Shown here in pieces: positions 51,857-52,867 of a DNA stretch of 64,000 nucleotides. Below the pieces are notes generated by a model that worked only from the letters and a program-made list of their open reading frames with translations, had not been told where the DNA came from and made no database searches. Source of the stretch: Actinomycetota bacterium (GTDB lineage Bacteria > Margulisbacteria > Marinamargulisbacteria > GCA-2716485 > GCA-002719695); assembly GCA_002697535.1 (NCBI GenBank), contig NZWE01000023.1:265-64264 (forward strand). Reading direction: 5' to 3'. The position numbers and the translations under genes were made by a program. Each line of letters starts with the position of its first letter. Within the stretch, counting starts at the first letter, position 1.

Positions 51857-52867
51857 ATGATAGGTTTTAGATTTAATACAGTAAAGAATGGTTTAATACC
51901 GGAACTTACGGTTCCGTTATTAGCTGAAGACCAGAGTTCAGCTAGAGCTAAGAGTCCAGCTAGAGTTCAGAGTCCAGCTAGAGTTCAGAGTCCAGCTAAA
52001 GTCCAGAGAAAAACTGGATTTGATGTATACAAGGGTCCAACTGATGTATCTATAGCTTTTCGACATACAGATTTGAAAGGCATGGTTGCAGAAAGTGTCC
52101 AAGGCGTTGAATTTATTGCAGCGAATACAGACTTACAAGCTATCGGCGTATCATTAGCTGATAACAAAATTCGATTAGGTGTCAAACTAGCCAAAGGACT
52201 TGGTGGAATTGCAGTTACTCCTATTGGTAAATGTGTTTATTCTCTCGAACCGGATAAAATTGCTAATGCTAAATACAAGCTGCCAATTTCTCAAAAGGAT
52301 GCTAAAACTATAGTCTTAAGTGTTATAGAACGCTTGTCTAAAAGTACAGGTGAAGATTCTATTTCAGATTATTTTTTTAATGTATTAGATCAAAATTACC
52401 ATGAAGTACATGTTTTTTTGAATTTAATTTTTTTTAATTTAGATTATTTTGTTGGTATTCTTGAGGCTGTTAAAGAGAAAGAAGATGGTAAAACACCGGA
52501 ACAAAAAAATAAAATTATTTTATCCTTTTTGAATGCCATTCAAAAAAAAGAATGTGAAATCCCAAATTTTAATATGTTATCTCGTGTTTCAAAACATATA
52601 AATAGCGAACGACCATTTTTACCCAAGTATGAATGGAAAAGAGTTTTTACAGACACTGAAGAAGTCGTAAACGAAAATTTTCCTGTGGGTGGAAATTTCG
52701 TGAGAGAAAATTATAGTGTAAAATATGCTGTTTATTGCTTAGGGGAAAATGGTAAACAGGTAAGGTTGGTGTTAGGTTTAAATGATGTCCCTGATACTTA
52801 TAACGAGACGCTAAGTAGGACGTTTTTAAGCGATGATTTTGATACTTGTAATAGTTATAATACATAA
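51857..52867 (+). CDS. ORFan: N-terminal hexapeptide repeats, a ~60-residue FtsZ-derived fragment and an unrelated C-terminal region
   Basis: 336-codon open frame with RBS 'aaaggag'. Residues ~76-124, '[49 protein letters not shown]', align to the FtsZ H1-T3 region. The T1 loop and the GGGTGTG signature are absent. Confidence 0.7.
   Translation: [336 protein letters not shown]
51931..52009 (+). repeat. 18-bp in-frame tandem repeat (about 3 full copies plus partial flanking copies)
   Basis: Copies are agagctaagagtccagct (51944-51961), agagttcagagtccagct (51962-51979) and agagttcagagtccagct (51980-51997). Partial copies flank them on both sides. The repeat encodes [24 protein letters not shown]. 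Confidence 0.9.

Follow-up and report, generated by a model that had tools for sequence, protein, structure and literature searches.

Within a 64,000-nucleotide (nt) stretch of DNA from an uncultured, AT-rich marine member of the Marinamargulisbacteria (contig NZWE01000023.1 of assembly GCA_002697535.1; hereafter the window), a 336-codon open reading frame (ORF) at positions 51857-52867 contains an in-frame copy of 126 nt of the division gene ftsZ. This piece is a single, very recent capture from an ftsZ lineage of the same genus. The ORF is probably a recently built chimeric allele, here termed allele A, of a fast-evolving and dispensable accessory gene in which the FtsZ piece is a passenger. 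Homologous alleles that lack the piece (alleles B and C) occupy the same genomic slot elsewhere, and an orthologue that carries it is found in a separate lineage represented by the metagenome-assembled genome (MAG) 'bacterium SP317'. The features discussed below are listed in Table 1.

The ftsZ-derived segment and its donor

The ORF exists as described in its initial annotation, with an ATG at 51857, a Shine-Dalgarno sequence (AAAGGAGA) 7 nt 5' of it and a stop ending at 52867. The probability of so long an open frame by chance is ~3e-12 at the composition of the window (32% G+C), and the exact protein is present on seven independent metagenome contigs. The initial annotation reported a match to the H1/S2/H2/T3 region of FtsZ at about residues 64-124. 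The match is real but narrower, with FtsZ homology confined to residues 76-117 (MVAES...KGLGG; nt 52082-52207). The NCBIfam ftsZ profile TIGR00065 aligned residues 74-136 to profile positions 34-96 (E 1e-8, 34.9 bits), so the expected relationship to FtsZ/tubulin profiles is significant. This score is, however, far below the curated cut-off of 295.2, and the ORF is thus not a member of the family as a whole protein; the Pfam Tubulin match was weak (E 0.028, 15.1 bits against a cut-off of 33). Searching the PDB with phmmer returned 49 FtsZ sequences and nothing else notable, the top match being Bacillus subtilis FtsZ (4u39, E 3.5e-8, residues 74-131), and the alignment to the B. subtilis protein given in the initial annotation is essentially the same as that produced by HMMER.

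At the DNA level, the boundaries of the copy are sharp. With blastn, 121 of the 126 nt are identical to an ftsZ gene designated P0004, in frame and with identity ending abruptly on both sides, and 39 of the 42 encoded residues are shared. P0004 encodes a 434-amino acid (aa) protein that is present on 13 marine metagenome contigs and is the closest FtsZ in the databases (the part of the ORF that aligns to it is 84% identical). The alignment to ftsZ thus points to a close, same-genus origin. Global alignments of the 90-120 nt flanking the copy to ftsZ score no better than shuffles; T1 or T3 remnants beyond the 126 nt were rejected on this basis, and descent from ftsZ holds for residues 76-117 only. 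Consequently, the supposed replacement of the T1 loop is DNA unrelated to ftsZ, and GGIAVTPIG, previously read as a degraded T3, is also unrelated sequence, the copy simply stopping after GLGG.

In the usual FtsZ nomenclature, the copied codons cover the end of helix H1, S2, T2, H2 and S3 and run into the beginning of T3. Of the nucleotide-binding and polymerisation loops, the piece keeps only T2 and the start of T3. There is no glycine-rich T1 loop (GGGGxN), no GGGTG[ST]G T4 signature and no T7 loop in the translation of the ORF, as had been claimed for the GGGTGTG signature and T7, and the Pfam, NCBIfam and PDB searches detected neither an FtsZ_C domain (PF12327) nor any FtsZ match past residue 136. 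With T1, T4, T7 and the C-terminal domain absent, the piece cannot work as FtsZ.

The origin of the copy was examined by comparison with four ftsZ lineages of the genus (P0004, P0005, P0007 and P0011 types). Copies in the ORF differ from P0004-type ftsZ by 3-7 nt, and from the P0005, P0007 and P0011 types by 13-17, 27-30 and 31-33 nt, respectively. All allele-A copies, including that of the SP317 lineage, have 2-3 derived sites in common, namely two synonymous changes and an altered Thr codon that now encodes Ala or Ile, depending on the variant. The original copy lay 2-3 nt from the inferred donor and was probably identical to it in protein (42/42). These shared derived sites and the proximity of every copy to the P0004 type indicate one capture and no ongoing gene conversion. 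Conversion by ftsZ was considered and rejected as the SP317 copy is P0004-like and 13-33 nt from the three other ftsZ lineages; this copy has probably not been homogenised against the ftsZ of its own lineage, which was not identified in SP317. A proposal that the ORF is the fossil of an ftsZ duplication captured by a new gene therefore survives in part: a piece of ftsZ was captured by another gene, but as a fresh 126-nt partial copy instead of a whole-gene duplication, and the recipient is not new but one allele of a small hyperdivergent family at a fixed locus.

Since its capture, the piece has accumulated approximately eight non-synonymous changes and one synonymous change. The same 42 codons in ftsZ differ between P0004 and P0005 by 12 synonymous and no non-synonymous changes (Fisher p 4e-5). 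Among allele-A variants, the piece is polymorphic at 7/42 residues, the highest share of any segment of the protein, and the 126-nt block differs by up to 8 nt with no conserved sub-block. The copy has lost the constraint that acts on FtsZ. The divergence of the block also bears on whether the 126 nt might act as a nucleic acid, either by serving a regulator of ftsZ mRNA as a target or sponge, as a source of antisense RNA or as a substrate for recombination with ftsZ. The 96% identity with ftsZ over 126 nt speaks for such a role, and the repeated joining of ftsZ to the ORF in assemblies (P0003/L012, P0050 and L106) shows that a block of this length can mislead assemblers and might also recombine. 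We consider this role very improbable, however, because the copy is sense-oriented and in frame, the block has already diverged between variants, no Rfam family matches the window and recombination with ftsZ would destroy an essential gene.

Similarly, chimeric contigs do arise around the block, which raises the question of whether the ftsZ segment in the ORF is itself an assembly artefact. This explanation is hardly credible, as both junctions recur across assemblies from JGI, NCBI and ENA, in no fewer than nine variants, as well as in the SP317 MAG, and the block has substitutions of its own that are seen in no ftsZ. Hybrid genes in which the FtsZ N-terminus is joined to the ORF (proteins P0003 and P0050; L012 1-2600 and L106 1513-3130) have their joint exactly at the 126-nt block; they were considered as real fusion genes and are most likely repeat-induced assembly chimeras. 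One of these hybrids jumps again into an ABC permease at a position equivalent to 52463 of the window, and one scaffold has N gaps at the left edge of the block.

A variable slot between gmhA and the ast operon

Around the ORF, the genes run in the order mdh, fumC, sdhCAB, gmhA, the ORF, an astC-like aminotransferase gene, astA, astD and astB. The aminotransferase 3' of the ORF places the source in Candidatus Marinamargulisbacteria; it is 85% identical to that of SP317 and 64% identical to that of SCGC AG-343-D04. In SP317, the orthologue of the ORF is 325 aa long and carries the FtsZ block, and in SCGC AG-343-D04 the aminotransferase gene follows gmhA with nothing in between. When the C-terminal 219 aa were compared exhaustively with 1.84 billion representatives by HMMER, only two further relatives emerged, P0030 (205 aa, allele B; E 1.8e-5) and P0032 (237 aa, allele C; E 2.5e-4), to which neither a profile search nor a protein-pattern scan of JGI metagenomes added any others. 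Both relatives share the motif T[AP]E[QY]KNK[IL]ILSFL with allele A and are without the FtsZ segment. The ORF is therefore not a strict ORFan, since its C-terminal half has distant relatives and these reside in the same genomic slot.

The 5' flanks of alleles B and C are 95-97% identical to the window up to the start codon, and on the 3' side an identity of 98-100% resumes from 17 nt past the stop, with the same aminotransferase following. Between these flanks, the three alleles are approximately 30% identical in protein. A nucleotide identity of 75-80% is found at 52448-52549 (approximately 100-176 nt around the FVxIL...KNKxILSFL motif). Outside this core, which also contains the point at which the L012 chimera switches for the second time, the alleles are unalignable as DNA. 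The conserved region immediately 5' of the gene includes the Shine-Dalgarno sequence and a putative promoter, recognised by eye, of the form TTGTCA-17-TATAAA (51769-51797). Scanning for the conserved flanks as a DNA pattern led to two more loci, L096 and L097. L096 carries allele B, and its low dS (synonymous divergence) relative to the window, of 0.11 in the aminotransferase gene and 0.02 in astA, indicates that this allele-B strain belongs to the same species as the window. In L097, from a strain resembling SP317, all that is left in the slot is a C-like allele cut down to 52 codons. As the gene is truncated in L097 and absent in L014, it is dispensable.

Alignment of the three alleles reveals an insertion of about 110 codons (approximately residues 56-165) that is specific to allele A and within which the ftsZ copy sits. 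The other ~70 inserted codons have no traceable donor: in frame, 5.8 billion proteins yielded only FtsZ and the family itself, and searches with the other five frames, as well as blastn and tblastx against the collected Marinamargulisbacteria DNA, returned nothing. Microhomology at the insertion site (NKIY versus NKIQ, 10/13 nt) was considered and is not compelling. The N-terminal repeats that had been noted in the ORF are real and consist of 4.3 copies of an 18-nt unit encoding SPARVQ, with a copy number that varies between allele-A variants. Allele C (P0032, L094 99-812) has a parallel N-terminal tandem repeat of six residues (EERRVF-like, ~4 copies), and in allele B the equivalent position carries ARVQ once.

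No integrase or transposase is present among the neighbours and no repeats flank the slot; Rfam returned no match in the window, for which a dedicated tRNA scan was not made. To judge from synteny and gene content, the slot is a replacement-type hypervariable islet of a lineage-restricted, dispensable gene in one genus. Alleles are swapped by homologous recombination in the near-identical flanks formed by the promoter and ribosome-binding region and the downstream gene. Allele A differs from B and C by the ~110-codon in-frame insertion holding the copy of ftsZ codons 28-69, and this copy was made once and very recently, probably by illegitimate or template-switch recombination.

One contig departs from this arrangement. 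In L103 (ENA ERZ908616 k127_108460, 61,037 nt; 1-11166), the allele-A cassette follows genes for NUDIX, NIF3 and a 629-aa PQQ_2 beta-propeller protein, and an identical cassette is found in the usual place after gmhA in L104 and L105. The arrangement in L103 is either a chimera or a real rearrangement; a dispersed repeat was sought at the junction and none was found.

Table 1. Coordinates of features at and around the variable gene (positions in the window)
Feature	Position	Strand	Basis
38-codon ORF MVTNDNLYEKNYNLLEQFIPLIGGGEFRWHCKHLFDSI 5' of the variable gene	51547..51663	+	called in JGI and ENA contigs
Upstream region kept across alleles A, B and C	51754..51856	+	alignment, blastn of flanks, sequence
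Tract of 93-100% identity (window against SP317 lineage)	51760..53060		sliding identity, dS
Variable gene, allele A (336 codons and a stop)	51857..52867	+	ORF list and sequence
Tandem repeat, 18-nt unit (SPARVQ), 4.3 copies	51932..52008	+	Tandem Repeats Finder (TRF), repeat families, variant alignment
Allele-A-specific insertion relative to B and C (~residues 56-165, ~110 codons)	52022..52351	+	A/B/C alignment
In-frame ftsZ copy, 126 nt (42 codons, ftsZ codons 28-69)	52082..52207	+	blastn, hidden Markov model (HMM) and PDB matches
Core domain common to A, B and C (residues 166-336)	52352..52864	+	HMMER, alignments, AlphaFold2 (AF2) model

Exchange, selection and the fate of the captured piece

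Comparison of the window with SP317 demonstrated that the 93-100% identical tract, which reaches the first 130 nt of the aminotransferase gene, lies in surroundings that are 75-88% identical. The dS of the ORF between the two is 0.035, as compared with 0.64-1.07 for the flanking genes, for which the ratio of non-synonymous to synonymous divergence (dN/dS) is 0.17-0.18. This low divergence of the ORF within a tract of high identity indicates that allele A was recently exchanged by homologous recombination between well-separated lineages. Within allele A, dN/dS is 0.9-1.2 compared with 0.10-0.26 in flanking genes (Fisher p 8e-5 to 6e-6), and it is 0.54-0.89 in the conserved C-terminal domain. 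Allele B has six non-synonymous and no synonymous differences.

These ratios raise the possibility that allele A is dead or dying, that is, that the insertion broke the protein, that the frame is still open only through its youth and that the sequence is drifting neutrally. The high dN/dS across the ORF and even in the C-terminal domain is as expected under this explanation, as are the dispensability of the gene and the lack of predicted structure in residues 1-149. We nevertheless consider a dying allele unlikely, although it is the alternative to which we give most weight. Nine intact variants (322-336 aa, 91-100% identical) were recovered from several assemblies, and the frame is unbroken in 9/9, so that the disruptions in close relatives by which a pseudogene remnant was to be recognised are not seen. 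The lone truncated variant, P0049, was rejected as a sign of decay because it is a scaffold with N gaps. Indels among the variants are of 6, 9, 15 and 18 nt and hence all multiples of three, and the promoter and ribosome-binding region is conserved. An exchange between lineages whose flanking genes differ at a dS of 0.64-1.07 is, moreover, easier to explain if the allele is useful. Finally, the equal non-synonymous excess in allele B, which is free of the insertion, indicates that a high dN/dS is a property of the family and not an effect of the insertion.

The long survival of three ~30%-identical alleles with open frames and a conserved core shows that this family represents a genuine gene on which some constraint acts. 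We infer that this family is subject to diversifying or frequency-dependent selection, for example through conflict with phages or other parasites, because the ORFs are intact, dN/dS is close to 1, old alleles coexist and one allele has spread across lineages.

Structure prediction and family searches provided few leads to the function of the gene. An AF2 model from the single sequence was uninformative (predicted local distance difference test (pLDDT) score of 37). With an alignment of five sequences, residues ~190-325 were modelled at a pLDDT of 65-89 as six helices followed by three long strands, and residues 1-149, including the FtsZ piece, remained below 30. Foldseek searches of the PDB and BFVD with this core gave nothing significant; the top PDB match, to the COMMD-like protein 9q6a over model residues ~146-325, was not significant (E 0.027, probability 0.30, template-modelling (TM) score 0.12-0.17). 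A profile search of the family against the PDB also found nothing. Modelling, which had been proposed as a check on the FtsZ match, thus leaves the piece unstructured and the ORF without a significant fold match. Beyond the FtsZ piece, there was no usable family match in Pfam, NCBIfam, PADLOC or PHROGs: PADLOC gave one chance-level match for allele A (E 0.016) and none for B or C, no PHROG matched below E 0.01, no relative was found on viral contigs in IMG/VR and BFVD supplied no fold match. No conserved transmembrane segment or signal-like N-terminus was seen. No defence genes lie nearby, the neighbours being genes of the tricarboxylic acid (TCA) cycle and of arginine catabolism.

This evidence also bears on the idea, raised in the initial annotation, that the piece is an exapted polymer cap or decoy. 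A functional piece could be a cap or poison subunit of FtsZ, could act on a partner of FtsZ or could be an integrated decoy for phage proteins. It is in frame, derives from a P0004-type ftsZ of the same genus and is kept in 9/9 variants; allele A has recently crossed lineage boundaries; the evolution of the family resembles an arms race; and phage-encoded inhibitors of FtsZ, such as lambda Kil and T7 Gp0.4, exist elsewhere. On the other hand, no complete FtsZ interface is present, since T1, T4, T7, H7, the C-terminal domain and the tail are all missing. The copied part is a buried beta-alpha-beta portion of the FtsZ GTPase fold, and such an element is unlikely to fold or to show its native surface alone. 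A mimic should stay near its model, but the piece has changed at a ratio of about 8:1 non-synonymous to synonymous and is the most polymorphic segment of the protein. The pLDDT of <30 and the lack of a match to defence-system models or of nearby defence genes also count against a function for the piece. We found no support for the cap or decoy as proposed and regard a functional piece as improbable. More doubtful again is the specific form in which the piece is a decoy or mimic recognised by an FtsZ-targeting factor (a phage inhibitor or the Z ring) and in which this advantage drove the spread of allele A. Despite the evidence against an FtsZ-like structural role, the piece may conceivably bind FtsZ or an FtsZ-binding partner.

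The piece is most likely a passenger, as neither FtsZ-like constraint nor a predicted fold is detected. It would lengthen the N-terminal half, which is the variable part of a soluble protein whose conserved part is the C-terminal helical-plus-beta domain. Several observations weigh against this reading of allele A as a live chimeric gene with a passenger piece. A dN/dS of ~1 fits loss of function too, and a neutrally evolving frame could well have escaped a premature stop over ~45 substitutions (P 0.10-0.22). With just two of the in-frame indels informative, pure drift is disfavoured only at the ~1-2% level. Expression of allele A is something that we infer from the conserved promoter-like region, the ribosome-binding site and the intact frames. 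The passenger status leans on missing constraint and a missing predicted fold, the latter from a very shallow AF2 alignment of five sequences. That allele A has spread into a lineage at a dS of 0.6-1.0 could mean that the insertion, with the piece included, is advantageous. There is no ftsZ in the window, and P0004, tied to it by genus and type, is a candidate for the gene of the window organism itself. Finally, L103 places allele A ~12.7 kb from a P0004-type ftsZ, instead of after gmhA.

Neighbouring features and relation to known systems

A 38-codon ORF lies 5' of the variable gene (Table 1), in a variable spacer outside the recently exchanged tract. Relative to L103-L105, it has eight synonymous and five non-synonymous changes with an invariant 24-codon centre, and in L093 its frame is open to the start of the contig and spans at least 64 codons. 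It had no family match, and SP317 has an unrelated 40-codon ORF at this place. This ORF may encode a small protein or be what is left of the 3' end of a lost gene. On the 3' side of the variable gene, an inverted repeat (AAACCT-TCTAG-AGGTTT, 52912-52928) overlaps the Shine-Dalgarno sequence of the aminotransferase gene and is kept in all alleles. A hairpin at this site was rejected because its predicted fold is no better than those of shuffles (z -0.86). Elsewhere in the window, a Pfam search at E 1e-5 matched none of three further ORFs, at 58255-60351 (+, 698 aa), 45354-45941 (-, 195 aa) and 44805-45350 (+, 181 aa). In this genus (L004-L009; ftsZ at L005 6001-7305), ftsZ is outside the division and cell wall (dcw) cluster with no adjacent ftsA; thyA and pdxJ flank it on the opposite strand, with bioD-like and yegS-like genes downstream and PBP2 upstream.

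The relationship of the ORF to the FtsZ/tubulin GTPase family (PF00091, TIGR00065) is that of a fragment of a member, and the ORF is neither a member nor a paralogue. Residues 76-117 copy FtsZ residues 28-69 and align with H1-S2-H2-S3 and the start of T3 of B. subtilis FtsZ, but these are only 42 of ~320 core residues. The FtsZ-like families CetZ, TubZ and FtsZl1 keep the GTPase core, whereas the ORF does not. Inhibitors of FtsZ such as MciZ, SulA, lambda Kil and T7 Gp0.4 resemble the ORF only in the idea of a small accessory protein acting on the Z ring; none of these is known to be derived from FtsZ sequence. The piece differs in that it evolves without FtsZ-like constraint, and nothing here points to binding.

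A closer parallel is provided by the minimal mobile elements, or replacement-type flexible islets, of Neisseria, the definition of which the locus fits (PMC1797815). The resemblance comprises alternative content at one syntenic site, conserved flanks, the absence of mobility genes and homologous recombination in the flanks. In the present case, however, the alternatives are distant homologues (~30% identity) and not unrelated cassettes, the cassette consists of a single gene and the host is an uncultured AT-rich marine lineage. For the core domain, the only lead is to prokaryotic COMMD-like proteins, which combine a helical HN domain with a COMM domain, with about six helices followed by a three-stranded sheet, and form ring oligomers (PDB 9q6a; PMC13392464). 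Alleles B and C are of similar size (~200 aa) and the predicted layout of the core is loosely similar, but there is no Pfam COMM-domain match and the order of C-terminal strands and helices differs.

Partial-gene capture is a known route to chimeric genes. The ORF resembles other chimeric genes formed by partial duplication or fragment capture, in a manner akin to exon shuffling, in that a piece has been inserted in frame and both donor and recipient are identifiable. It differs in that the donor is an essential and highly conserved division gene, the copy is a mere 126 nt and only ~2% from its donor, and the setting is a bacterium. A narrow search of the literature found no described case of fragment capture that involved ftsZ.

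Here we have described an unusually clean and datable case in which one bacterial gene took up, in frame, part of another that is an essential housekeeping gene, and for which the donor lineage, the exact 126-nt edges and the insertion-free recipient alleles are all identifiable. Because of the 126-nt repeat, public metagenome assemblies contain contigs that wrongly join ftsZ to the ORF as well as gaps in scaffolds, and they call for caution in their interpretation. If the piece matters to the protein, binding to FtsZ or to an FtsZ-directed factor would be expected. The value of the finding lies in the study of gene origin, as a dated fragment capture, and not in a new mechanism of cell division. 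The chimeric product has already moved between lineages of this marine bacterium, which is uncultured and streamlined, and the case illustrates how hypervariable single-gene islets can serve as a testing ground for new coding sequence.

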